From the UHGV virus genome UHGV-1353844: 64,000 nucleotides of DNA. The stretch is one strand, 5' to 3'. The position numbers were made by a program, and so were the translations under genes. Within the stretch, counting starts at the first letter, position 1; each line of letters opens with the position of its first letter. Shown in pieces: positions 862 to 27,460 of this stretch. The notes below the pieces were generated by a model. That model saw only the letters and a program-made list of their open reading frames with translations, did no database searches and had not been told where the DNA came from. The stretch comes from a virus.

Positions 862-1779
862 ATGATAGACAATGTGGAATCCAGGATCTCGACGAAGTTG
901 TACGATAAACCCACTATATTGTCCGTAGTTACGACGTCTAAGTGTAACCTAGACTGTAGTTTCTGCGGTGGAGCCTACTACATGAATCGTGAAGATTCGT
1001 CTCGTGCTTTTCAACGCGAACGTATCCTGGAATTACTACAAGAGAATCCAGCTATTAAGGAAATACATTGGACGGGTGGTGAACCGCTACTCGTCCAACG
1101 TAAGATTGAGGATTTCGTTAACGAACTGAAAGTGTCTCATCCGCACCTTGAGCATCACTTGTATACCAACGGCTTAAAACTGCGTAAATCGCATCTTACG
1201 CTGCTAAAAGACTTTGAGCATGTGTTTGTATCAATTGATGGCTACAAACGTTCTGAGCGCCCTTTTATGCGCTTTATTGAAGAGGATAGCCACGAAGCAC
1301 TGGAAGCGTTATACGAACTCGATAACTTCCAAACCTGGGCTGTGATTACGCGTGACCAGTTAGCCGATAAGCGCTGGTATGAAGATATTGTGGATTTACA
1401 TCGTGCGATGTACCACTATCGTCCCCGTGCGTTTTCTCTGATGTTTGATGCCCAAATGCCAAAACCGTTGTCTCCCGATCACATCATGAACTTCGTTTAT
1501 GGTTATTTAAAGATTCAGGAGAATATGGAACGGCTGAACGTCCAAACCGGAGAATCGTGCGGCGTGTCTGTCAGCAAGATTTTCGAAAACGAGTGTAATG
1601 TCTGTAGCGAAGAGTTGTATTTGAACGCAGATGGAACAGAACATCAGCTTCAGAATGCACCGGCTATCTTAAACGGTGGGTGCAATCAGCTTGCTTGCTC
1701 TATCGGGGTAGGTGCTTACGAGTACATTAAACGCGTGATTTATGCAGAGCGTAAAAGGATAAGCAAAGATGAGCAATAA
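862..1779 (+). CDS. radical SAM enzyme with C-terminal auxiliary Cys cluster
   Basis: CNLDCSFC (CX3CX2C) near N-terminus, GGEPLL SAM-binding motif, C-terminal Cys-rich region; SD tggag upstream. Confidence 0.75.
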   Translation: MIDNVESRISTKLYDKPTILSVVTTSKCNLDCSFCGGAYYMNREDSSRAFQRERILELLQENPAIKEIHWTGGEPLLVQRKIEDFVNELKVSHPHLEHHLYTNGLKLRKSHLTLLKDFEHVFVSIDGYKRSERPFMRFIEEDSHEALEALYELDNFQTWAVITRDQLADKRWYEDIVDLHRAMYHYRPRAFSLMFDAQMPKPLSPDHIMNFVYGYLKIQENMERLNVQTGESCGVSVSKIFENECNVCSEELYLNADGTEHQLQNAPAILNGGCNQLACSIGVGAYEYIKRVIYAERKRISKDEQ

Positions 1780-3103
1780 TGAAGCACCACGTTCACAACG
1801 TACTTACCAGGTGGTAACGAACCTGTCTTGTAACTTAGACTGTGAGTATTGTTACGAACGTAAGTATCCGCGTAATAACAAAGCGGCGGATATCGTGGAT
1901 TTCTTACACGCCTGTTTTGAGCGTGATAAAGATATTCCGAACATCGACGTCATTATTGATATCATCGGCGGCGAACCTTTTATGCAACCGAAACTGCTGT
2001 TAGCGGCGTTTGAAACCGCAGAACAGTTGTGTAAGGAGCATAATCGACCGTATATGTTCAGTATCTCCACGAACGGGACGTTGTTAGACCGTCCGTTAAA
2101 CCGTGAGATCGTCGAGCGTTGGAAAGACAAACTCTCCATCGGTGTGTCTATCGACGGGCTGCCAGAAGTCCATGACCGTTATCGTATCTTTACCACGACG
2201 CGTCAGGGTTCTTACGAAGCCGCTGTTCGTGGCTATAACTACTTAAAAGAAGTGGGTATTGCTGAACTGGGTATCAAGGCAACCTTTACAACCGAAACCC
2301 TCCCGCATTACGCGGCGAGTATGAAGTCGTTAATCGATATTGCGGGTGGTGGTACGATTTCGGGTAACGTGACGTACGAAGATATCCTTCCACGGAGCAT
2401 GGCAACGGATATTGCGTTGCAGATGATCGAGGTGATGGATTATTGGATTGAGAAAGGGCTGCACACCAATCCACGTAACGTGTTGTCCCACATCATTCCT
2501 GAAGGTCTGGATTTCCGTCAGATTTGGGACCCAGATTGGCGTGATAAACTGCTGTACGACGACACGCACCGTTATAACCCTGAACGTTTACGTCCGTTCT
2601 GTGGGACGTTGACGTTTATGACTTGTTTAGGTTTTGACCGTAAGGTGTATGGTTGTAACCGATTCATGTCAACGGTAACGTCACGCTCTGCGGTGTTTGA
2701 GTTAGTCGGTCGTGAGTTTGTTAGCTTAGACGGCGGGAAACTGCTGGAAGAGATTCAGACGCAATACACCAACTATCCTGAAACGTGCTTAGGTTGTCCG
2801 ATGAAACACGGTTGTGGGAGCTGTGCAGCTGCTTCCTACGAAAACGGTGAAGGGACACTGGAAGACCGTAAGGCGTACCACGCTGAACGACGTCAATGTG
2901 GTTGGACGACCGCAAAACTGATGGCGGCAGAATACTGGCGTCAACGTACAGGCACCGTCCACGCATCGTCACTGCACGATTCGTCTGTTTGTTACTGTCC
3001 GAAATGTACGCGTGAGCGTGAGCAAGCTAAACGTGCGTTAAATGCACAACCTACTGAGGCAAATAATGAAATCAATTCTGATCCACAATTTTACGAAGCG
3101 TAA
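1769..3103 (+). CDS. radical SAM enzyme with SPASM-type C-terminal domain
   Basis: CNLDCEYC motif, GGEPF motif, C-terminal CLGCPMKHGCGSCAAAS cluster; overlaps upstream gene by 11 nt. Confidence 0.75.
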   Translation: MSNNEAPRSQRTYQVVTNLSCNLDCEYCYERKYPRNNKAADIVDFLHACFERDKDIPNIDVIIDIIGGEPFMQPKLLLAAFETAEQLCKEHNRPYMFSISTNGTLLDRPLNREIVERWKDKLSIGVSIDGLPEVHDRYRIFTTTRQGSYEAAVRGYNYLKEVGIAELGIKATFTTETLPHYAASMKSLIDIAGGGTISGNVTYEDILPRSMATDIALQMIEVMDYWIEKGLHTNPRNVLSHIIPEGLDFRQIWDPDWRDKLLYDDTHRYNPERLRPFCGTLTFMTCLGFDRKVYGCNRFMSTVTSRSAVFELVGREFVSLDGGKLLEEIQTQYTNYPETCLGCPMKHGCGSCAAASYENGEGTLEDRKAYHAERRQCGWTTAKLMAAEYWRQRTGTVHASSLHDSSVCYCPKCTREREQAKRALNAQPTEANNEINSDPQFYEA

Positions 3104-3632: not shown

Positions 3633-4282
3633 CGAAAGAAGAGATTCGGGCGCGTTATTTCGCGCACGATCTGCCAATTGACCGCCACGGTAACTACATG
3701 GAACGTGTAGGTAACGAAGACCGTGGTCGTACGGGGTTCTGTGCATTACTGCACTATAAGTTGATTGAAGGGATGAGTGATGAAGAAGCTTTAGCTCAGA
3801 TGCAAACTTACGAAATGTCTCCTATTGAGGCGAAGTTTACACTGAACAAAGCAAAAGAATTCATTACTGACGTTCTGGAGATTAACCTGGACGAGATTCG
3901 TTCGAATATGCGCTCGACGTCTCGCTATATCTATTTAGATATCCAGAAAATCATGTTGGAAATTGAACACCGATACGAAGACCAGCGTCACGGTTATATC
4001 GAAGTTGACGGCCATCATTTCCAAGCGGATGAAACCTCTCGTCAGATGCTGGGTCAATATATCCAGTCTGAAACTGCACCGGATTATTGGCTGGACACGT
4101 CGAATACACGTATAGAACCGTTTACGCTGGAGCAATGTAAAGCGTTAATGGCGGCTATTGTGAAACGTGACCAACAGCTACACAACGCGATGTCTGCCCA
4201 GAAAAGTGAAATTCGTCAGTACGCCGAACAGCGTGACTACGACACGATCCGTGCACTTGCGCTGGAAATGGGATTAGAATAA
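3608..4282 (+). CDS. hypothetical protein, radical SAM island partner
   Basis: 224-aa ORF, SD ggag, followed by strong bidirectional terminator. Confidence 0.65.
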   Translation: MSASNKSLTKEEIRARYFAHDLPIDRHGNYMERVGNEDRGRTGFCALLHYKLIEGMSDEEALAQMQTYEMSPIEAKFTLNKAKEFITDVLEINLDEIRSNMRSTSRYIYLDIQKIMLEIEHRYEDQRHGYIEVDGHHFQADETSRQMLGQYIQSETAPDYWLDTSNTRIEPFTLEQCKALMAAIVKRDQQLHNAMSAQKSEIRQYAEQRDYDTIRALALEMGLE

Positions 4283-4332
4283 AAAATACCTACCTCCGTA
4301 AAGGAGGTAGGTAAACTTATTATTTTTTGTTA
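4280..4332. terminator. bidirectional rho-independent terminator between convergent genes
   Basis: hairpin tacctacctcc-gtaa-aggaggtaggta flanked by A-run and T-run. Confidence 0.7.
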
Positions 4333-4350
4333 TAGTAGTTGACTTAGCGG

Positions 4351-4881
4351 TTAAGCAGTAAAACCGTCCAATTCACCGTCGGTGGTGGCCAGGTCAATAC
4401 GATTATCGACTACCTTCGGTGTAATTACGAAAGTTGCCATTACACCCGGTTTATAACGGAGGTTCTGTTCAGTAACGGTGCATGTCACGGTACGCAGAGT
4501 GACGTTTTCATGTTCGTCTTTCTGGTCTTCGGTGCTGTACACAACGTCACCTGGCGCGATAGCGTCGTCAGGTTTTACTTTGTTGATGTATAGCTGTAAC
4601 CAAGCGCGGAGTTCATTTTCTTGAACCCAACGAGACAGATCGTCAGTTAGTTCAATCCGTCCTACAACACCCGGCTCCAGACGATCGTAATGCAGTTCGA
4701 TTTCGCCTTTGAAATTCTCAGAACCCGGTAGTGCGGTCATGGTAACTTTGGTATTCTTACTTTCGCCTTCCAGCGCAGTAGGGAGACCAAAGGACACTTC
4801 TTTATCTGTAATCTGATGCGGTAGCTCAGCGTTAGCAGCATTATAAAGCGCGACCAACATCATCTGGTTAGTAGCGGCCAT
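4351..4881 (-). CDS. paralog-family protein (HY.RL / ELDGFTA motifs), likely abundant virion protein
   Basis: 176-aa ORF with strong optimal codon bias; paralog of 4951-5487. Confidence 0.6.
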   Translation of the reverse strand: MAATNQMMLVALYNAANAELPHQITDKEVSFGLPTALEGESKNTKVTMTALPGSENFKGEIELHYDRLEPGVVGRIELTDDLSRWVQENELRAWLQLYINKVKPDDAIAPGDVVYSTEDQKDEHENVTLRTVTCTVTEQNLRYKPGVMATFVITPKVVDNRIDLATTDGELDGFTA

Positions 4882-5625: not shown

Positions 5626-6105
5626 ATGCTAAAACGCATTCTCGTGGTCGTTGCTTTTGTAATGACATTGGCAAGTTGTGCTATTCAGCCGAACGCAGAA
5701 GGTCAGTTCTCCACCGTACCTGTTGACCAACACGATATGGTCATTTACACCTGTACAGCTGCTTCTCAAGAATTCGACGATTTTAAACCGGTACCGTCTA
5801 GCCTAAAACTGATGCCCCTTTCGGTGTTAGTCATGGATACAGGGGCGAATTGGGTCGCTACATGGGACGAAGGTAAAATTGAATCTCCGCAACTTTATAA
5901 AGACCTGTTAGGCAAGGTGGACGGTAACTTAAACGTTGTTACCGGTGAGCGCTATTACCGTGTAAACGGGTTACTGTCGAAAACCCCAACGTTTGCGTAT
6001 TCTACCGTCAACTACAAAACGGGTGAAGGTAAAGGTGTAACGTTCTTCAGATGTCACGAAGGCAGCATTCCGGATACCGGCACTATGTTGCACCCGGTAG
6101 AATAA
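5626..6105 (+). CDS. lipoprotein (signal peptide plus lipobox LASC); moron-like opposite-strand gene
   Basis: MLKRILVVVAFVMTLASC N-terminus; ATG at 5626 with SD; the ORF-track start at 5566 is a TTG extension. Confidence 0.65.
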   Translation: MLKRILVVVAFVMTLASCAIQPNAEGQFSTVPVDQHDMVIYTCTAASQEFDDFKPVPSSLKLMPLSVLVMDTGANWVATWDEGKIESPQLYKDLLGKVDGNLNVVTGERYYRVNGLLSKTPTFAYSTVNYKTGEGKGVTFFRCHEGSIPDTGTMLHPVE

Positions 6106-6109
6106 TAAA

Positions 6110-6145
6110 TACCCTCCTGCTTAGCAGGAGGGTAGGCTTATTTTG
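6110..6145 (+). terminator. rho-independent terminator of lipoprotein gene
   Basis: ccctcctgc-ttag-caggaggg hairpin followed by ttatttt. Confidence 0.7.
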
Positions 6146-6225
6146 TCCGTAAAACGCTCTAGAATGCGTTCTAAGACAGTTTATACAAAATAATGTACAA
6201 TCACCCTAAGTTAAGGATTATGCGC

Positions 6226-6741
6226 TTAGATTTTAACTAAGGCGCTCCAATCGATAGGGCTTTGTTTCACGACTTTCACAGTACCGCGATTCGGTGACCA
6301 GAACGTGATATTCGGTTGGTTACGAACGTCGATATGTAACCAACTGATGTCGCATTCGATAAAGTGAATGAACGGAAATTCGTCAGGATTAGCGGCGATA
6401 TAGTCGTGGACTTGTTTTACCGTTGAGTCTAACAGTGTTGCGTCAAATGCATTACCGAACTTGTGCTGACTCCCTGAATCAGAGTAGAGTTGTAACGCAC
6501 GTTGTTTATAGTTACCACCCTTAGGCTTTTCTTGGTTGATGAAAAAGTCTAAGGTTCTTAGGCCACGCTGTTGCGCAGCAGACGAGTTAATCACCATTCT
6601 GCCGAAACGGTTACGAATCTGTTGTAGCGAAATCATTAACAACGGGTTCATAAACCGAATTGCAGAATCACCGTATTTGGCGATGTACGATTGTGGTACT
6701 AACTCTTTGAGTTTAAAGTTACTCGGATTTGGATGAAACAT
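6226..6741 (-). CDS. zinc peptidase M15-like (D-Ala-D-Ala carboxypeptidase / L-Ala-D-Glu peptidase fold), cell-wall hydrolase
   Basis: SQHKFGNAFDA (SxHxxGxAxD) and HIDVR motifs. Confidence 0.55.
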   Translation of the reverse strand: MFHPNPSNFKLKELVPQSYIAKYGDSAIRFMNPLLMISLQQIRNRFGRMVINSSAAQQRGLRTLDFFINQEKPKGGNYKQRALQLYSDSGSQHKFGNAFDATLLDSTVKQVHDYIAANPDEFPFIHFIECDISWLHIDVRNQPNITFWSPNRGTVKVVKQSPIDWSALVKI

Positions 6742-7393
6742 CTTCCCTCCCAGACAGAAAAGCCCGTTTGATGTTCAAGTATTTGACATTAACGGGACAA
6801 CCTGTGGTGATATCAACACGTTCGTGGTCAGGAATAGCAGGCTCCTTAAACTCACGAACGAACAAATAGTTTCGATTGTAATCTAACGTACGGTAATCGT
6901 TAGTGGTATAAGACGGCTTCGCGTTAGGGTCTACGTAAGCATCCCAACCGAACCCCGCCACGGCTTTATAAAATGTTTGGCAGATATACGGCGAGATTTC
7001 CAACGACTGCATAATACGCAGGAATGTTAAGTCAGAGAACTCTTTATCGATAATACGCGAAACGTTACCACCCGGTGTCATGGGATAGCTACGCTCCGTG
7101 TTACATTTTTGATAGAGTAAGTCGTGAATGCAGGCCGCAGGTGCCCACGGTCCGTCAGGATGGAAAATTCCCTGTAAGTGTTCAGGAATTGACGCTAAAT
7201 CGGTAACGAACCCTTTCGGAGCGGTTAACCACAGTTGCGTGTCAGGTAATACACCGGTTAAATAAACCGCACGGTCTAAGTGTACGTGGTCGTGATAAAT
7301 CTCACGTAACGTAAACGGATAATGGTAATCCTCCGTTAATACAAACCACTTATTATCTAAACGTTTATATTGAAGCTTTTCCATTACCCACAC
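6719..7393 (-). CDS. DUF1353-like protein
   Basis: TDLASIPE and HDLLY motifs typical of DUF1353. Confidence 0.45.
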   Translation of the reverse strand: MWVMEKLQYKRLDNKWFVLTEDYHYPFTLREIYHDHVHLDRAVYLTGVLPDTQLWLTAPKGFVTDLASIPEHLQGIFHPDGPWAPAACIHDLLYQKCNTERSYPMTPGGNVSRIIDKEFSDLTFLRIMQSLEISPYICQTFYKAVAGFGWDAYVDPNAKPSYTTNDYRTLDYNRNYLFVREFKEPAIPDHERVDITTGCPVNVKYLNIKRAFLSGREDVSSKSE

Positions 7394-16960: not shown

Positions 16961-17473
16961 TTAACCACCAAAGGTTAAGACGCGATTATCTGCGGTAACG
17001 ATTAAATCGTTGTCTTTTACTACAGCGGCTTCTTCGTCGTTACCGAAAACCAGAACGGAGAATTGGCCTTTATAACCTAACGAGTTGGGTGAAACCTGTA
17101 ACGTTACAGCGTCTTTCCCTACGGTAAATGATTCGTCGGTAAGATCGTCGGGTTGTAAATTACAACCGCAAGCCGCGTTAATTCCGTCGATTAGATCGTG
17201 TGCGGTAAAACCATTACCGGAAACCTTTACCAGAATAGGTTGCTGGTTTAACCACCGCTCTGCGGTTAAACGGTTGTAATAGATTTGTAACGTTCTGTTA
17301 CCAGGACGTTTTATCTTTACAACAGCAGTGGTGTCACGATCCATTTCGTTACTGGTCTTTACGTCGCTGACTTCAACCTCGTTCTCTTGCAGGTCGAGCT
17401 GGAGGTCATGGTTAACCAGTGAAATAACCATGTTAAGTGAAGTTAACGACAAATCAGGCGTGAATTGTTCCAC
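16961..17473 (-). CDS. paralog-family protein (PDLSLTS N-terminus, YYNRL motif); GTG start
   Basis: 170-aa ORF, SD AGGAGG 8 nt upstream of GTG; paralog of 26897-27460. Confidence 0.6.
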   Translation of the reverse strand: MEQFTPDLSLTSLNMVISLVNHDLQLDLQENEVEVSDVKTSNEMDRDTTAVVKIKRPGNRTLQIYYNRLTAERWLNQQPILVKVSGNGFTAHDLIDGINAACGCNLQPDDLTDESFTVGKDAVTLQVSPNSLGYKGQFSVLVFGNDEEAAVVKDNDLIVTADNRVLTFGG

Positions 17474-17572
17474 GTATGGTTACCTCCTATGATTGGGGAG
17501 ACATAAAATGTTGGCTAAAAACATTTCACCCCCCCCCCGATTACGTTTTCAAGCACATTCGCTTGAAAATTA

Positions 17573-18076
17573 TTAACTAATCTTCAAATCTCTTAATGTG
17601 CCGGTTGATTTCATCACGTTTTGGAAAGCAGTGCTAATGTTAGAGGTCCAGTAATAATGTTGACCATTAATAACCTGCTGATAGGCTACCGTACAAGTGT
17701 TGCCGCCTAGATTTACGGTGATGTTAGAAGCTCTCCCACCTTGTAAATAGACCGCTAAACTTGGTTTTGCATCAGCAGCCAATGTGATCAATAGTAGTTG
17801 GATACCAATAAGTGTGCCTACGCCGCAGCTACCAGGATTCTGAATAGTCCCTTTATTTTTCTGCGCTAACGGCCAGTTTGGTCCCACCGCACCCCAAAAT
17901 TTAGCCATTGAATCGCTATATGCAGCAGTTGCGATTTTACAGCCAAGAGATCGGCCCACCATTTGACTCATCATAAAAGGTCTACCCAATCCTAATTTAC
18001 TACCAGCAGCACTCATCCATTGTTCGCCCGTTTCGTTCTTGGCCGAAGAACCGACCCATCCAGATGCTACCCCCAT
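17573..18076 (-). CDS. fibre-associated protein sharing N-terminal ~45 aa with the Gly-rich protein (possible tip adhesin variant)
   Basis: GWVGSSAKNETGEQWMS N-terminus paralogous to 18137-18919. Confidence 0.55.
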   Translation of the reverse strand: MGVASGWVGSSAKNETGEQWMSAAGSKLGLGRPFMMSQMVGRSLGCKIATAAYSDSMAKFWGAVGPNWPLAQKNKGTIQNPGSCGVGTLIGIQLLLITLAADAKPSLAVYLQGGRASNITVNLGGNTCTVAYQQVINGQHYYWTSNISTAFQNVMKSTGTLRDLKIS

Positions 18077-18136
18077 TATACCCTATCCTTTTGAAAGGTG
18101 TGAGGAGGGGAGTGAGTATCCCCATACTTTTTCAAA

Positions 18137-18919
18137 TTAAACACGTGAACCATATATTGCACCTACTGCGTCCCATCTTGGCGCATTACCTCTAACGGCT
18201 GCACCAGCGGCTCCGCCGTTATATTCTGTACCGTTACCATGAGTATTACATCTTCCTCCAGCAGCACCGACATTACCACCCGAACCGCCTGTATATGCAC
18301 TAAGAGACCCCTCACCAACAGATCCTCTACCAGGAGCGGAAATAGTACCAGCAGCTGCACCGGAACTCATATGTGAGGAAGACCCACCAGCACCGAATGG
18401 GCGACCACCGCCACCACCAAATATTAGTCTACCCCTGTTACCGCCGCCACCGCCGCCACCGCCTCCGGCAATAGCGCCACGGTTGGTTATACGCAGTCTG
18501 TTTCCTATTCCGTTCTGTATTGCGGTTCCACCTGCACCGCCTGGTGAGTTAGAACCGCCGTTGCCTCCTCTGCCGTATACTGTAACCCCAGGATTGATGA
18601 TGAGTGTAATATACGAATTTGGAAGATTGCTAGGGAATTCTAAACAAGGAACCCCGCTACTATAAGACACTAAATCCCCTGTAATGGTCACAACGACAGC
18701 ATTAGAGCCTATAGAACGTAAATAGTTAATAAGCGTATCTTTATTGTAATTGTGATTAGCCCCGATCGAATACTGAACCTCTTTTGATTTTCCCGCCAAT
18801 TGCGACATCCAGCCTGGAACCGGCACACCAAGTGTGCGCATCGCGCCAGACATCCAATCGTTACCAGTTTCAGCTTTTGCTGAAGAACCAATCCAACCAC
18901 CTACGCCGACAACTGCCAT
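18137..18919 (-). CDS. glycine-rich protein immediately downstream of tail fibre (possible adhesin or tip protein)
   Basis: poly-Gly tracts (GGGGGGGGGN, GGGGRPFGAGG); start overlaps fibre stop (TAATG). Confidence 0.6.
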   Translation of the reverse strand: MAVVGVGGWIGSSAKAETGNDWMSGAMRTLGVPVPGWMSQLAGKSKEVQYSIGANHNYNKDTLINYLRSIGSNAVVVTITGDLVSYSSGVPCLEFPSNLPNSYITLIINPGVTVYGRGGNGGSNSPGGAGGTAIQNGIGNRLRITNRGAIAGGGGGGGGGNRGRLIFGGGGGRPFGAGGSSSHMSSGAAAGTISAPGRGSVGEGSLSAYTGGSGGNVGAAGGRCNTHGNGTEYNGGAAGAAVRGNAPRWDAVGAIYGSRV

Positions 18920-21900
18920 TAGGATCTTCCTTTAATTTCGTTAACCTCTTGACGCAACGCTTTCATACCCTCTACTAACAGCGCAATAACGCCATTGTAG
19001 TTTAGACGTAAACGTTTTTCGCCTGAAATGGCATCATCATCCTCAGACACAAGTTCAGGTAACGCTTCTAATGCGTCTTGAGCAATTAGACCTACCGAAG
19101 TGTTCCAACCGTCGTCTGGATGTTGAACCTCGTACAGATAGCCGGTAAGCGCTTCTAACCGATCCAAAGCCTTATCCAGCTTCACCAGATTACGTTTGTT
19201 GCGACGGTCAGAACGAATCTGTACGTCGTTAAACGAACCGTTACCGTTGCTAGAAATGTTATGACCAAAGGTTACTTGACCGTTAGAGTTATTAAAATAC
19301 AACGGACGTAGTCCGTTCCAGGAACCCGTTGCGGCTTGTCCGGAGTCGGTTACTAAGAAATAGGTATTGGCACCATCATTACGTAAAATGAAACCGCAGC
19401 TACCGTAAGCGATTCGGAAATCAGCATACTTCGTAACCAGTTTACCGTTAACCGTTAAATCGCCAGTGACAGTACCGCCGCTGTTCTTCAAAAACAGCGC
19501 ATCAATCCAGCCTGCAAATCCTGACTTATTGATGTATAAATTTCCATCATTTGCCAGAATGCCGCCACCCGGCGTCTTGAGAGGCTGACTCACATTTTGC
19601 AGCGTCAGCACACCATTCAATTGACCGCCAGATAATGGCAACGCCCCAACATCCGCAGCAGTTGGCTTGTTTTTCGTATTGTAAGCGCGACGCCAACCTG
19701 GTGAGTAAGCATCACCGTTATTTACGTAGATAAACTCCGCATTAGTGAGTGCGCCGCCGACGCTCGTCGTTGTGGGGGTCGTTATACGGATCGTGTAGTT
19801 GTTTGCGCTGTTACTAATCACTTCTATAACAGCCCCAGCTAACGGAATAACACCACAACCCGTCTCGCTGTTCGGTATGGACGCACTAGCAGCATAAGCC
19901 CATGCACAGCGAGCAACCCATGATTTTGTGGTAAACGCGCCGTTATTTTGCAATAACGTCACTAGCTGTGCTGTAGTTATTGCGCCGCCGTCTTTACCAG
20001 TCTCCAACCAACCAGTGGGCGAAGCCGGACAACCTATATCGGCAGGCCCTAACGATATATTTCTAGTACCGTCAAATGCGATACCGTTAATGGTACGCGC
20101 TGTCTGCAACTTTGTTGCCGTGGCTGCGTTTCCGGTAGTCGACTGATTACCCGTCTGGTTTACACCGGGCAGACTAATGTCTTGCGAACCGTCAAAGTTA
20201 ACACCGCCGATCTTACGTGCTGTTTGTAACTTAGTAGCGGTCGCTGCATTACCTGTCGTATTCTGGTTGCCTTGCTGGTTAACCCCCGGTAAATTGATAT
20301 CCCCAGTACCGTCAAAGGTAACGCCGCCGATTCTGCGAGCGGTTTTCAGTTTCGTCGCGGTAGCGGCATTGCCAGTAGTATCCTGATTACCGGTGGTATT
20401 TACACCAGGAATACTGTCACGGGCAGTATAAACTTGTGCCCAATCTGACCACGGCGCATCAGCCGTATCGCGTCGACTACGAATATAAACGGGTGCGTGT
20501 GCACCACTCGTGCCCGACCAACCAATTAACAACTCACCTTCGCCTAGCGCATTAGCACCACCTAAGTGCAGCAAGTTACCATAGGCGGTTGGATAACCGT
20601 TATTGTAAACTTCGTACATCTGGATACCAGGTGTACCCTTGTTCGACCCGGTCAGAGCGGTAACCCGTCCACGACCTACCAAGGTGTTGATATTGATGTC
20701 TCCAGAGCCATCGAATTTCACACCGTTAATATTTCTGGCGGTTTGAAGTTTAGTGGCTGTCGCGGCGTTACCTGTGGTGTTTTGATTACCTTGTTGGTTA
20801 ACACCTGGGAGGTTAACGTCGCCGCTGCCGTCGAAAGCGACCCCGCCAATTCTACGCGCAGTCTGGAGCTTAGTGGCGGTTGAAGCATTGCCGGTTAACT
20901 CACCTGCTAACCCTTTTGCAAAGGTCTGTTTCTCTGCCCAAGTGTGGGCTGCGTTCAACACAGGCATCTGTCGTGGCGTAATCGTACGGCTACCCTTCTC
21001 GCCAGCGATACGTACTGCAAAGAAGCGATAGTTAGCAGTAGACACTGTACCGCGCCAGACCAACATACTCCGACCAGTACCGGTGTCCTCTGACGCCCCT
21101 ACGAGAATACTGACCAAGTTACCGTCAATAACACCCCAATCCATTCCCGCAGGAATGTTTTTCATGGTATTCAACGGTGTACTTATCATCTGGCCAGGAA
21201 CGAAATCGAAGGTTTGCCAGTCTAACGGATCGACCTTGGCAGCAACCCCACCGATCCCTAAAGCCAACGGGAGTGAATAGGATGTGAAAATCTCTCGCCA
21301 TTCGCTCCAGGCGTTTCCTGTACGAATTCGTTGGAACTTGCGACCTTTCGTAGTTGCGCCTGTACCGTATGTGGTATAATTTTGTTCAACGCCTGAACCG
21401 TCTAAGCGTAAGGTAACTTCGCAAACACCTAACAAGGTTGCGCCAGCAGAGTCTGTTAACGGACCGTCAGTAGCCTCACCGGTAACACTAAAACGACCAG
21501 GTTTAGTTAAGTCATTAAAGCTACCCTTATAGTAGGCACCGTCTACCTGATACCCAACTTGAATCCAATCTTCCCACTGTGGATTAGACGCATCCCAAGT
21601 CGCAGTCAACCCACGGACATACATCGTACCACGACGAGTGGTGTAACGTTGCATACGTCCGTAGAGACCACCTTCCATTACTTCTAATACACCTTGAGCA
21701 TTACCACCTTCTTCGGGATAATGACGATCGAACGTCGCAAGAGAAGAACTGGAGTTACGCCACTGACCCATGTGTTCAACACCACCTAAAGTGTTAAGGT
21801 CAATAGTGGTGGAGAGCGGACGGTTCGCGGTAGTTGTCATTCTCCAGGGCGACCAAGGGCCGTTAGTACCGTTCCAGGTTCCTGTTAAACGACGAGTATA

Positions 21901-23385
21901 GACGTTACCGTTACGTATGGTAAAACGTTGGCTTCCGCTGTAGTTACCTGCTTTGAATACCTCTAAGTAACCAACTGCATCGTCTTCCGGGAAGTTCTTT
22001 GCAATTGTTGCATTCGTAGACGTGGCTTTAGACCAGACACCCATAAACGCTTCGACTGGGCCGAAGGTGTTGATATCCGCATCTACTGCCATTTCCCCAT
22101 TAAACTTCAAATACGTCTCTGCTGACAACCCGATGTTCTTCGCGAAGGTGACTTTATCTGGAATATCGGCACCGTTAGAACTGCGTTGCATAGCACCCGC
22201 AGCTTTATCAACAGTGGTTTTCAAACCCAGGAAGTTAATGATATCTGCCGTCGACCCTTTCGCTAACAAATCACGCGCAGTCGAGGTGAAATCCGCTAAC
22301 CCTACCTGATTACTACCGGTAAAGTAAGGGAGTTTGTTTGCAGCGGTGGTGACTGCGGCAATCGCTGTCAGTAACGGACTTAACGGCTGTTTACCCGCGA
22401 GTTGGTTCGTCATCGTTGTCGCAAAGTTAGGATCGTTTCCTAACGCAGCTGCAATTTCTGATAACGTATCTAACGTCTCGGGTGAAGAGTCCACTAATTC
22501 AGCAATCGCTTGCCGTACCCATGCGGTCGTTGAGACGCTCGTGTCGTTAGAATCCGAAGCAGGTGTTGGTGCTTTTACCACACCGGTAAAAGTTGGGTTG
22601 TGACGGTTTGCTTTTAACTGCAAATCTTCATTTAACTGCTTAACCGTTGACGGCGTAGCCGCTTCAGTAACAGAGTCACTGCTTAAGGTATTATTAAGTC
22701 TAACGATACCTTTACTGGTCGTTGTTGCATCAACGTTACCTTTTGCAGCGATTTCTTCTGCACGCTTAGCCGCTGCCTCAGAACGCGTTGCCGCATTCTC
22801 TGCGGTTTCTTTGTCTGTGGTAACTTGCGTTGCTGTAGCTTCTACAGCGGCTTTTGACGACTCTACCGACGCGACAGCTTCGTTAACTGCCGTAAGCGAC
22901 TGTTCGACTTGACCGGCTTGTGTGGCAACAGTTTCTGCTTTCTTCGTAACGGTAGTCACCGCTTGTGTGACGTTGGCCTCGCTTGCCGCTACCGCTTGCG
23001 CTTTCTCATTAACGGACACAACCTGGGTATCTACCGCCGTTTTCGCGGCTAACACTTCAGTGTGTTTTGTACCGACTTCAGTTGCTTTTTCGGTTACAGT
23101 TTGCGCTTGTTGAGCAACTGTAGCCGCAACGGTGTCAGTTTGTTGTTTTGCTGTTTCTGCTAAATTCTTTGCTTGTGTAGCCTGAGTTGCAGCTTCTTGT
23201 GATTGTGTTGCTGCTGTTTGTGCATCAGACACCGCATTACGTACGGTGTCAATATCTGCAACGATCTCACGGACAGGTAACTTATAATCTTTCTCATCCT
23301 TGGAAAAAAGTAAAACACCTTCACCTATATCCCCGGTGTATGGACGTAAATCGTGTAAACGAATTTTCTTTACCGCTTTAGCCAT
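18919..23385 (-). CDS. long tail fibre protein with N-terminal anchor, A/T/Q-rich coiled coil, five NTTGNAATATKLQTAR repeats and C-terminal intramolecular chaperone (S74-type autoproteolytic) domain
   Basis: 1488-aa ORF; C-terminal SDRRNKRNLVKLDKALDRLEALTGYLYE segment; repeat motif typical of phage fibre repeats. Confidence 0.85.
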   Translation of the reverse strand: MAKAVKKIRLHDLRPYTGDIGEGVLLFSKDEKDYKLPVREIVADIDTVRNAVSDAQTAATQSQEAATQATQAKNLAETAKQQTDTVAATVAQQAQTVTEKATEVGTKHTEVLAAKTAVDTQVVSVNEKAQAVAASEANVTQAVTTVTKKAETVATQAGQVEQSLTAVNEAVASVESSKAAVEATATQVTTDKETAENAATRSEAAAKRAEEIAAKGNVDATTTSKGIVRLNNTLSSDSVTEAATPSTVKQLNEDLQLKANRHNPTFTGVVKAPTPASDSNDTSVSTTAWVRQAIAELVDSSPETLDTLSEIAAALGNDPNFATTMTNQLAGKQPLSPLLTAIAAVTTAANKLPYFTGSNQVGLADFTSTARDLLAKGSTADIINFLGLKTTVDKAAGAMQRSSNGADIPDKVTFAKNIGLSAETYLKFNGEMAVDADINTFGPVEAFMGVWSKATSTNATIAKNFPEDDAVGYLEVFKAGNYSGSQRFTIRNGNVYTRRLTGTWNGTNGPWSPWRMTTTANRPLSTTIDLNTLGGVEHMGQWRNSSSSLATFDRHYPEEGGNAQGVLEVMEGGLYGRMQRYTTRRGTMYVRGLTATWDASNPQWEDWIQVGYQVDGAYYKGSFNDLTKPGRFSVTGEATDGPLTDSAGATLLGVCEVTLRLDGSGVEQNYTTYGTGATTKGRKFQRIRTGNAWSEWREIFTSYSLPLALGIGGVAAKVDPLDWQTFDFVPGQMISTPLNTMKNIPAGMDWGVIDGNLVSILVGASEDTGTGRSMLVWRGTVSTANYRFFAVRIAGEKGSRTITPRQMPVLNAAHTWAEKQTFAKGLAGELTGNASTATKLQTARRIGGVAFDGSGDVNLPGVNQQGNQNTTGNAATATKLQTARNINGVKFDGSGDININTLVGRGRVTALTGSNKGTPGIQMYEVYNNGYPTAYGNLLHLGGANALGEGELLIGWSGTSGAHAPVYIRSRRDTADAPWSDWAQVYTARDSIPGVNTTGNQDTTGNAATATKLKTARRIGGVTFDGTGDINLPGVNQQGNQNTTGNAATATKLQTARKIGGVNFDGSQDISLPGVNQTGNQSTTGNAATATKLQTARTINGIAFDGTRNISLGPADIGCPASPTGWLETGKDGGAITTAQLVTLLQNNGAFTTKSWVARCAWAYAASASIPNSETGCGVIPLAGAVIEVISNSANNYTIRITTPTTTSVGGALTNAEFIYVNNGDAYSPGWRRAYNTKNKPTAADVGALPLSGGQLNGVLTLQNVSQPLKTPGGGILANDGNLYINKSGFAGWIDALFLKNSGGTVTGDLTVNGKLVTKYADFRIAYGSCGFILRNDGANTYFLVTDSGQAATGSWNGLRPLYFNNSNGQVTFGHNISSNGNGSFNDVQIRSDRRNKRNLVKLDKALDRLEALTGYLYEVQHPDDGWNTSVGLIAQDALEALPELVSEDDDAISGEKRLRLNYNGVIALLVEGMKALRQEVNEIKGRS
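20040..20420 (-). repeat. imperfect ~120-bp tandem DNA repeats inside fibre gene encoding the GNAATATKL repeats
   Basis: three successive units ending ccgtcaaa(g)ttaacaccgccgat / ccgtcaaaggtaacgccgccgat. Confidence 0.6.
20693..20895 (-). repeat. second block of the same fibre repeat
   Basis: units gccatcgaatttcacaccgttaat / gccgtcgaaagcgaccccgccaat. Confidence 0.55.
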
Positions 23386-23419
23386 GATATTTAATTCTCT
23401 ATCGGGAGCTAAAAGATCT

Positions 23420-23453
23420 GGGGGAGGTAAAGCACCTCCCCCAACATTTTTAT
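23420..23453 (-). other. GC-rich hairpin between enzyme gene and fibre gene (attenuator or terminator)
   Basis: gggggaggt-aaagc-acctccccc. Confidence 0.4.
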
Positions 23454-26469: not shown

Positions 26470-26931
26470 TTAGTAACCCGCTGCAAGAAGAGAACCTTTC
26501 CAAGTGGCACCCCCGTCAAGGGTATAAAGCGACAGAGTGTCTTCCGCATTTGCCGTGTAGGATAAAACCGGTTTTGCACCGTGAGGCCACTTAACGTTTT
26601 CAGGCCAGGTTACTTTATTCGCCCCTGTTCCCTGCTTAAACGTTAGCATTACTTCGAAACGGGTATTTTCCGCAACGTTAGTAAGGGCTGCGAACGTCAC
26701 CGTAGTAGTGGGATCGTTTAACACCAGAATAATGTCAGTGCTGGTATTGAAATCCAACGTGGCGGCATTATTCGAACCGTTAACCGTGGTGACTGTCGCA
26801 ACCGGGGCTAACTTATCAACATCAATTTTATATTCTTTATTGTCTTTGCTATACAGCAGTACCCCGCCCTGCGGTGTGCCTGCGTAGCTTTCGAGCTCAT
26901 GGAGTCTCGTCTTCTTCAGTGCTGTCGCCAT
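26470..26931 (-). CDS. tail-fibre N-terminal anchor-domain protein
   Basis: MATALKKTRLHELESYAGTPQGGVLLYSKDNKEYK aligns with fibre N-terminus MAKAVKKIRLHDLRPYTGDIGEGVLLFSKDEKDYK; ATG at 26931 with SD GAGG. Confidence 0.6.
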   Translation of the reverse strand: MATALKKTRLHELESYAGTPQGGVLLYSKDNKEYKIDVDKLAPVATVTTVNGSNNAATLDFNTSTDIILVLNDPTTTVTFAALTNVAENTRFEVMLTFKQGTGANKVTWPENVKWPHGAKPVLSYTANAEDTLSLYTLDGGATWKGSLLAAGY

Positions 26932-27460
26932 CTGTAACCTCGAATGTAAGAACGGCATTGTCACCAATACAGAAGATTGCATCTTCTTCGTTTGCTAATG
27001 CCCGTTCGGTTGTATCAAACAACGTCACCATAAACGCGTTCATCCACGCAGGAGAATCGTCGGCAACGTTAACGGAAATGGGATCGTTACCTAAAGTGAT
27101 ATCTGAAGCACGTAAATCCTCGGGTTGTAAGTTCGTTCCGCAGAATTCATTTACAACACTAAGAATGTCACGAACGTTGTCTTCAGTACCGTCTAACGAA
27201 ATCAGAATGGGTTCATACGTTAATACTTCATCTGCGTCGAGTCTGTCGTAATAAACCACAACAGACGCACCATCTGGTTTTCTGATTTTACTGATTTCGG
27301 TAATGGTGTTACGACGCGAAGTTGTTGGAGATGAGTTTGTTACGGTCCCGCTAATACGTATTTCGTTTAGCGTAAGCTGTAACCCATTATCGTGATTGAT
27401 TAAAGCGACCACTAGCTCTGCTGAGGTCAGACTCAAATCAGGTACGTATGGTGTGGCCAC
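26897..27460 (-). CDS. paralog-family protein (PDLSLTS, VYYDRL); GTG start
   Basis: 187-aa ORF; paralog of 16961-17473. Confidence 0.6.
   Translation of the reverse strand: MATPYVPDLSLTSAELVVALINHDNGLQLTLNEIRISGTVTNSSPTTSRRNTITEISKIRKPDGASVVVYYDRLDADEVLTYEPILISLDGTEDNVRDILSVVNEFCGTNLQPEDLRASDITLGNDPISVNVADDSPAWMNAFMVTLFDTTERALANEEDAIFCIGDNAVLTFEVTDGDSTEEDETP

Follow-up and report, generated by a model that had tools for sequence, protein, structure and literature searches.

Directly behind a long tail fibre gene, the viral genome UHGV-1353844 encodes two proteins that begin alike and then diverge, one of them rich in glycine. The initial annotation read them as alternative tip adhesins or as an effector delivered by the fibre, which raises the question of what each protein is and whether both could serve one fibre. 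We addressed this question in the window, meaning the whole stretch of 64,000 nucleotides that was analysed, in which the fibre gene and the two genes behind it (ORF A and ORF B) all lie on the minus strand according to the ORF listing, a strand that the initial annotation did not give. The features considered are as follows.

23418-23444, minus strand: terminator-like GC hairpin with a T-run, between the gene for a 1001-aa tail protein (upstream) and the fibre gene
18919-23385, minus strand: long tail fibre gene (1488 aa, ORF listing)
19213-19365, minus strand: fibre tip (residues ~1341-1391), homologous to the part of S16 gp37 that is capped by gp38
18922-19212, minus strand: C-terminal Peptidase_S74 intramolecular chaperone (PF13884; IRS-D-x-x-x-K motif)
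18137-18919, minus strand: ORF A, classical gp38 adhesin by homology (260 aa; Pfam GP38 and Gp38_N, PHROG 2056, PDB 6f45_D and 9v85)
18191-18478, minus strand: predicted receptor-binding part of ORF A (residues 148-243, glycine-rich motifs and hypervariable loops), a swapped module with 62% DNA identity to a relative from Enterobacter ludwigii vs 93% for codons 1-147
18077-18136, minus strand: spacer between ORF A and ORF B (60 nt), holding the AAGGA ribosome-binding site of ORF B
17573-18076, minus strand: ORF B, putative short Gp38_N adhesin (167 aa; Gp38_N and PHROG 1121)
17474-17572, minus strand: structured spacer 3' of ORF B (two hairpins, RNA fold -33.3 kcal/mol)

Layout of the fibre cassette

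The stop codon of the fibre gene and the ATG of ORF A have base 18919 in common, giving the TAATG overlap that the initial annotation had pointed out. On the minus strand this junction reads ...AAGGAAGATCCTAATGGCA, with an AAGGAAG ribosome-binding site upstream of the ORF A start, and it is plausible that ORF A is co-expressed with the fibre through the overlap. ORF B starts 60 nt past the ORF A stop and has its own ribosome-binding site. The RNA fold of the spacer between the two genes is no better than that of shuffled sequence (z 0.30). Sigma-70-like promoter matches occurred at chance level (8 found, 7.6 expected), and the one strong pair of hexamers in the A-B spacer overlaps the ORF B ATG, for which reason we did not accept it as the promoter of this gene.

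Hairpins occur at both ends of the three genes. The one ahead of the fibre gene has a 12-bp stem with 7 GC pairs and was detected on both strands. The spacer behind ORF B folds better than every one of 200 shuffled sequences (z -3.43, 0/200 as good), its second hairpin holds a G10 run (C10 on the plus strand, 17529-17538), and the structured spacer is kept in relatives with a G-run of 9-11. It is followed by the ribosome-binding site of a DUF7941 gene and is likely an end-of-operon element.

The N-terminal sequences of ORF A (GWIGSSAKAETGNDWMS) and ORF B (GWVGSSAKNETGEQWMS) both fit the pattern GW[IV]GSSAK.ETG..WMS. BLASTP aligns the two proteins at 34% identity over 116 aa (E 2e-8), with nearly all of the similarity in the first ~45 residues, in agreement with the earlier reading of a common N-terminus followed by divergence. 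Since both proteins match Pfam Gp38_N (PF21721; 1.5e-15 for ORF A and 3.8e-20 for ORF B), this likeness reflects homology, not chance.

Families of the fibre and its two neighbours

The fibre is a mosaic that combines a lineage-specific N-terminus, a segment similar to P2 gpH and lambda Stf (residues 219-334), repeat units like those of the Mu tail fibre S and, in its C-terminal half, a T4 gp34-like trimerisation segment, an S16 gp37-like tip and an S74 intramolecular chaperone. Pfam places Gp34_trimer at residues 1302-1363 and Peptidase_S74 at residues 1392-1446 (41.5 bits; the PF13884 cut-off is 22 bits), and the PDB matches are 8ju3, 5yvq, 4uxe and 6f45_A, the last being the distal subunit of the S16 long tail fibre (residues 1341-1486, phmmer E 1e-12). 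The S74 domain is C-terminal, has the Ser-Asp...Lys motif and is predicted to cut itself off at IRS-D-x-x-x-K; R-S-D-x-x-x-K is invariant in all nine aligned fibres (9/9), including gp37 of FL18 and PEi20. A megablast search of phage records with the fibre DNA returned no match, and tblastn with the N-terminal 350 aa matched the widespread P2 gpH/lambda Stf segment alone, with no isolated phage yielding an orthologous fibre. In most T-even phages, the self-cleaving chaperone domain of gp37 is shed, after which each fibre receives one gp38 monomer (PMC9569957). In S16, the fibre trimer has three symmetric pockets, each filled by a conserved Trp from one attachment helix of gp38, and one monomer caps one fibre (PMC6851490).

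By homology, ORF A is a bona fide classical gp38 adhesin, as the initial annotation had supposed in comparing it with gp38-type distal adhesins. It matches Pfam GP38 (PF05268) over residues 47-260 and model positions 1-218 of 218 (3.1e-69; 233.6 bits, with a curated cut-off of 25 bits), PHROG 2056 'tail fiber protein; host specificity' (3e-93) and, in the PDB, S16 gp38 (6F45_D, 3.3e-50) and 9v85 (2.8e-38). The architecture obtained by homology comprises a Gp38_N attachment domain, a beta-helix and a sandwich of glycine-rich motifs and hypervariable loops. In the attachment domain (residues 1-42), W9, W22 and W37 align with W7, W20 and W35 of S16. ORF A therefore has four features that mark the gp38 adhesins (PF05268): the full model, the three-Trp attachment domain, the alternation of Gly-rich and hypervariable stretches, and a position after an S74 fibre with a gp37-like tip.

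The poly-Gly tracts of ORF A (AGGGGGGGGGNRGRLIFGGGGGRPFGAGG) are present as quoted in the initial annotation, which had likened them both to gp38 motifs and to Gly-rich bacteriocins. Their alignment with the S16 gp38 glycine-rich motifs (6F45_D) is residue for residue, which favours the first likeness and counts against the second. A bacteriocin-like toxin or fibre-delivered effector, suggested by Gly-rich composition, is extremely improbable as an identity for ORF A: no Pfam or PHROG family other than GP38, Gp38_N and tail families matched at E<=0.1, toxin families included, and close homologues are experimentally verified adhesins (PMC12032242). The neighbouring genes encode virion and tail proteins.

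Identity levels along the protein indicate that ORF A is a chimera, in which a lineage-specific docking and beta-helix half is joined to a T-even-type loop module. Its N-terminal 147 aa are 94-95% identical to those of jumbo relatives and only ~50% identical to gp38 of Mosigvirus FL18, to which residues 148-243 are ~92% and residues 148-260 ~89% identical. At the DNA level, the loop part is 80-89% identical to gp38 genes of Mosigvirus, Tequatrovirus and Krischvirus. Phages FL18, FL12 and FL20 need OmpA (PMC12032242), and from the ~92% loop identity to the OmpA-dependent FL18 we predict that the loop module of ORF A probably binds OmpA, by a rule that comes from E. coli phages and is applied here to a lineage whose relatives come from Salmonella and Enterobacter assemblies.

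ORF B has the features of a short Gp38_N adhesin. Its match to Gp38_N (72 bits, with a cut-off of 25 bits) is stronger than that of ORF A, it matches PHROG 1121 'tail fiber adhesin' over its full length (residues 1-165, 7.7e-46), and in relatives its counterparts directly follow an S74-ending fibre gene. The attachment domain (residues 1 to ~45) retains two of the three Trp, W7 and W20, with Met35 in place of the third. An AF2 model built with 16 homologues shows a confident plain beta-sandwich of ~120 aa (residues ~45-167, pLDDT ~90) and gives low confidence to the attachment domain, as expected for a domain that folds onto a partner. We did not file ORF B under PF05268 because it has no match to GP38 at E<=0.1, PHROG 2056 covers only its residues 2-52, and its body is a plain beta-sandwich and not the beta-helix and glycine-rich body of that family. 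The body is without a solved structural relative, and the exact sequence of ORF B was not on record in an exact-sequence look-up.

A HMMER scan of 1.8 billion representative proteins found about a dozen clusters similar to ORF B over its full length and ~45 more, 150-310 aa long, that match in the first ~50 residues only. Because so many matches are limited to this part, Gp38_N appears to be a docking module joined to many different bodies. The B-type body itself is found in Stx prophages, SSU5-like phage-plasmids, T4-like Klebsiella, Edwardsiella and Proteus phages, and jumbo phages, and ORF B is 58-62% identical to the Stx-phage and phage-plasmid proteins. Its context and variability point to a putative receptor binder.

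Modular exchange among relatives

Gene products of the window include a major head protein of 761 aa, internal head proteins and tail proteins, and the genes upstream of the fibre include those for the 1001-aa tail protein (PHROG 2871) and for a 170-aa 'tail fiber protein' (PHROG 9017). Its DNA is ~73% identical to that of Seoulvirus (SPN3US-like) jumbo phages across radical-SAM genes and ~71% identical to it in the gene for the 1001-aa tail protein; positions 20000-44000 gave a single match in phage records (71%). Among complete genomes, the nearest relative is a circular 'plasmid' of 222,441 bp from Enterobacter ludwigii, which is 92% identical and has the same fibre-A-B order; further relatives lie in assemblies of Salmonella and E. 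coli and among IMG/VR contigs 220-225 kb long. On these DNA similarities the backbone is that of a Seoul-like (SPN3US-related) jumbo phage, a group known mainly from bacterial assemblies. That relatives turn up in such assemblies agrees with a report that Seoul-like jumbo phages persist in bacterial isolates (bioRxiv 10.1101/2024.12.31.630880). Proteus phage 7, of the SPN3US species, has a homologue of the 1001-aa tail protein and no fibre/gp38 cassette after it.

Comparison with the E. ludwigii relative reveals sharp changes in DNA identity along the cassette: 97.5% at the 3' end of the fibre gene, 93% in ORF A codons 1-147, 62% in codons 148-243, 93% at the 3' end of ORF A, 88% in the A-B spacer, 85% in ORF B codons 1-55 and 53% in codons 56-167. 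The swapping of C-terminal portions among related phages that the initial annotation had anticipated is thus borne out. With identities of 62% and 53% between flanks of ~85-97%, the bodies of ORF A and ORF B are, on sequence comparison, hot spots of exchange or diversification between conserved joints.

Among 11 jumbo loci, seven have both genes (the window, L002, L006, L012, L013, L015 and L016) and four have ORF B alone (L003, L004, L005 and L014), in which case B starts 4 nt after the fibre gene; the B proteins of L003-L005 are 99% identical to ORF B of the window. Module types, defined by identity to the window, were as follows.

Fibre tip module: two types (76-81% or 20%)
ORF A body module: two types (97-98% or 65-68%)
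ORF B body module: three types (99%, 81-82% and 51-52%)

Among the jumbo loci, at least six different combinations of tip, A body and B body are found, so that the three modules assort independently. The same fibre tip type is found in both B-only and A+B relatives, and in SSU5-like phage-plasmids the gene in the slot after the fibre gene is of either the A type or the B type. A survey of ~50 loci with upstream DNA, with Stx and lambdoid prophages, phage-plasmids and T4-likes among them, showed in every case an S74-ending fibre ORF with a Gp38_N ORF directly behind it.

These data bear on whether both genes are in use. The B-only relatives imply that a phage can do without A, a gene probably acquired or lost as a cassette, and one could imagine that an inserted A displaced a resident B, now a poorly used leftover, or the reverse. 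The coupling of ORF A to the fibre by TAATG, the placement of B 60 nt further on and the Met at the third Trp position of B would all suit such a history. We nevertheless consider a single functional gene unlikely: seven independent jumbo genomes have both ORFs intact, and the three B body types (b1, b1' and b2) among the A+B genomes indicate continuing selection or exchange, not decay. Decayed B genes look otherwise, being split into two ORFs in prophage loci L043-L045, and the B-only genomes have the Met35 form as their single adhesin.

If both proteins are used, B might still cap another tail component, the 1001-aa tail protein or the 170-aa fibre-like protein, so that two appendages are decorated and no competition arises. 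The cassette does lie in a receptor-binding-protein island with the genes for these two tail proteins just upstream, and several receptor-binding proteins are common in jumbo phages. This arrangement is improbable to a greater degree than loss of function in one gene, given that the 222-kb complete relative has a single place matching the gp37-like tip and S74, that B follows this same fibre by 4 nt in the B-only relatives and that every surveyed locus has the S74 fibre followed by a Gp38_N ORF. Locus L004 is without the 1001-aa and 170-aa genes, yet keeps fibre and B.

A non-structural role for B, as a fibre assembly factor or chaperone like T4 gp38 that stays outside the virion, is very improbable. 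It would agree with the label 'distal long tail fiber assembly catalyst' on many records of homologues, but this label is inherited from T4 gp38, the sequence of which differs greatly from the one found in adhesin-type gp38 (PMC6851490). Furthermore, B has the virion-attachment domain Gp38_N, the fibre has its own intramolecular chaperone, and the B body shows, between near-identical genomes, a hypervariability that is characteristic of receptor binders rather than chaperones.

Proposed alternative caps for one fibre and their known counterparts

We think it likely that the cassette is a T2/S16-type tip-adhesin module in a Seoul-like jumbo phage, with ORFs A and B as alternative caps competing for the same fibre. 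The fibre would trimerise with the help of its C-terminal S74 chaperone, which would then cut itself off at the conserved R-S-D motif and expose the gp37-like beta-helical tip. One gp38-family monomer, A or B, would cap this tip through its N-terminal three-helix attachment domain, and virions would carry a mix of A-capped and B-capped fibres, making two receptors usable: the one predicted from the ORF A loops to be OmpA, and another bound by the different beta-sandwich of ORF B. Of the two roles named in the initial annotation, alternative tip adhesins is the one that gains from the evidence, in that ORF B has the same attachment domain, the two types share a slot, B occurs alone or with A, and the C-terminal parts are hot spots; the effector finds no support.

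Competition is expected because A and B have the same attachment domain and the 222-kb relative has a single tip/S74 place, and B appears to work as a cap by itself, being the sole adhesin directly after the same tip type in L003, L004, L005 and L014. The affinity of ORF B for the tip may differ from that of ORF A, with Met in place of the third anchoring Trp, and ORF A might out-compete ORF B, since A alone is translationally coupled to the fibre. More tentatively, and with some doubt, we propose that A and B compete for a single capping site such that each virion is a stochastic mosaic of OmpA-type (A) and B-type tips. Were this so, the mosaic tips would constitute protein-level, inversion-free host-range hedging, evolvable through independent recombination of tip, A body and B body, and T-even receptor loops would move between Straboviridae and nucleus-forming jumbo phages.

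Among the programmable determinants of host range in coliphages, the gp38 adhesins are understood best. Because the ORF A loops are nearly identical to those of an OmpA-dependent Mosigvirus, T-even receptor-prediction rules and engineering recipes may transfer to an unrelated, hard-to-culture phage group, and receptor-binding cassettes appear to cross family boundaries. The natural B-alone and A+B genomes, with their several module combinations, offer a ready comparison for the question whether one fibre can be shared by two monomeric caps, and the widespread B-type body, as yet without a solved structure, is a reasonable structural target. Literature searches on tandem or dual gp38, on Gp38_N/PF21721 and on gp38 in SPN3US-like phages returned nothing relevant, and we found no report, for any phage, of mixed capping of one fibre type by two gp38 proteins.

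The nearest counterparts are the gp38 proteins of T2/T6/S16-type Straboviridae (PF05268 and PF21721; 6F45 chain D), which have the same three-part architecture as ORF A and the same gene position, directly after a fibre ending in a self-cleaving S74 domain. They differ in belonging to a T-even backbone, whereas the backbone here is that of a Seoul-like jumbo phage; in capping a fibre assembled from gp34-35-36-37, whereas the fibre here is one 1488-aa mosaic polypeptide; and in that ORF A is chimeric, with a lineage-specific N-terminal 147 aa. ORF B corresponds over its full length to the PHROG 1121 short adhesins, which comprise the 'tail fibre adhesine' of Stx phages P13374/75-02/phi191, the SSU5-like phage-plasmid adhesin and Kanagawavirus PEi20 gp38, and which, like ORF B, always stand behind an S74-ending fibre. 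Edwardsiella phage PEi20 (Straboviridae) also has two consecutive Gp38_N genes directly after gp37; however, both of its gp38 proteins are short, whereas here a classical GP38 is paired with a short type on an unrelated backbone. T4 gp38, a Tfa-type assembly chaperone, has only gene name and position in common with the adhesin-type proteins, and homologues have been mislabelled 'assembly catalyst' on that account; it differs greatly from adhesin-type gp38 in sequence and acts as a folding helper, not as a receptor-recognition protein (PMC6851490).

The invertible tips of Mu and P1 (S-U vs S'-U') likewise offer two alternative receptor specificities on one fibre shaft, and part of the fibre here resembles Mu S (8ju3). 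In Mu and P1, the alternative tips are chosen by DNA inversion and are fused to the fibre, whereas here each adhesin is a protein of its own, and the two genes point the same way and are presumably co-expressed; the DNA beside the cassette showed neither an invertase nor an inverted repeat. Set beside these systems, the cassette is a known kind of host-range module, here in an unusual genome and in double dose.

The receptor-binding-protein island

Two paralogous genes encoding DUF7941 'virion structural proteins', 36% identical to each other (E 4e-36), bracket a receptor-binding-protein island that comprises a 170-aa fibre-like gene, a 1001-aa tail protein gene, the fibre gene and the genes for A (the 260-aa classical gp38 adhesin) and B (the 167-aa short Gp38_N adhesin).

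16961-17473, minus strand: DUF7941 paralogue
26897-27460, minus strand: DUF7941 paralogue
23418-23444: strong hairpin, rich in GC and with T-runs on both strands, in the gap that separates the fibre gene from the gene for the 1001-aa tail protein

In the related jumbo locus L004, the upstream DUF7941 gene is followed directly by the fibre gene, with both the 1001-aa and the 170-aa genes absent; gene content of the island therefore varies among relatives. The hairpin 5' of the fibre gene resembles a bidirectional terminator.

The fibre itself, encoded at 18919-23385 on the minus strand, is an extreme mosaic, with modules from P2, Mu, T4 gp34 and gp37. At residues 219-334 it shares 55% identity with P2 gpH/lambda Stf, and residues ~830-1100 hold five to six repeats of ~31 aa (type GNxxTTGNAATATKLQTAR.IGGV.FDGSGD). 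A 31-aa indel gives the fibre of the Enterobacter ludwigii relative one repeat unit more than that of the window.

Adhesin variants and the B-DUF7941 intergenic region

Other arrangements of A- and B-type genes were observed elsewhere. The A-type ORF of jumbo contig L013 (3340-3978) is only 212 aa long. In three lambdoid or Stx-type loci on IMG/VR prophage contigs (L043-L045), the B-type gene appears to be a pseudogene, broken into one ORF of 107 aa and another of 68 aa. Another dual adhesin arrangement (4001-4558 and 5926-6816) occurs on a 106,833-bp IMG/VR contig (L058), where an S74 fibre is followed directly by a short Gp38_N adhesin and, ~1.4 kb further downstream, by a 296-aa GP38-type gene.

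The spacer that runs from the stop codon of B to the ribosome-binding site of the DUF7941 gene downstream holds a conserved double hairpin, which contains a homopolymeric G-run. The fold predicted for the hairpin region is far more stable than those of shuffled controls (z -3.43).

17474-17572: double hairpin region
17529-17538: G-run, C10 on the plus strand and G10 on the coding strand

This run measures 9, 10 or 11 nt among otherwise near-identical relatives, and is missing or shifted in others. It could be slippage-prone, or the length differences could merely be assembly noise.

Lineage and provenance

Conservation within the first 20 kb of the window is highest across two genes with ~73% DNA identity to SPN3US-like phages.

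862-3103, plus strand: two radical-SAM protein genes

The fibre region had no match among isolated phages in the phage collection. Almost all known members of the lineage (relatives considered: L002, NZ_CP134650.1; L005, GCA_044191855.1; L006; L012; L013; L015) come from bacterial genome assemblies and viromes, with sources including a 222-kb circular E. ludwigii 'plasmid', Salmonella Chester and Typhimurium contigs, and IMG/VR contigs of 220-225 kb. This occurrence in bacterial assemblies fits the report of Seoul-like jumbo phages as persistent and non-temperate (bioRxiv 10.1101/2024.12.31.630880).
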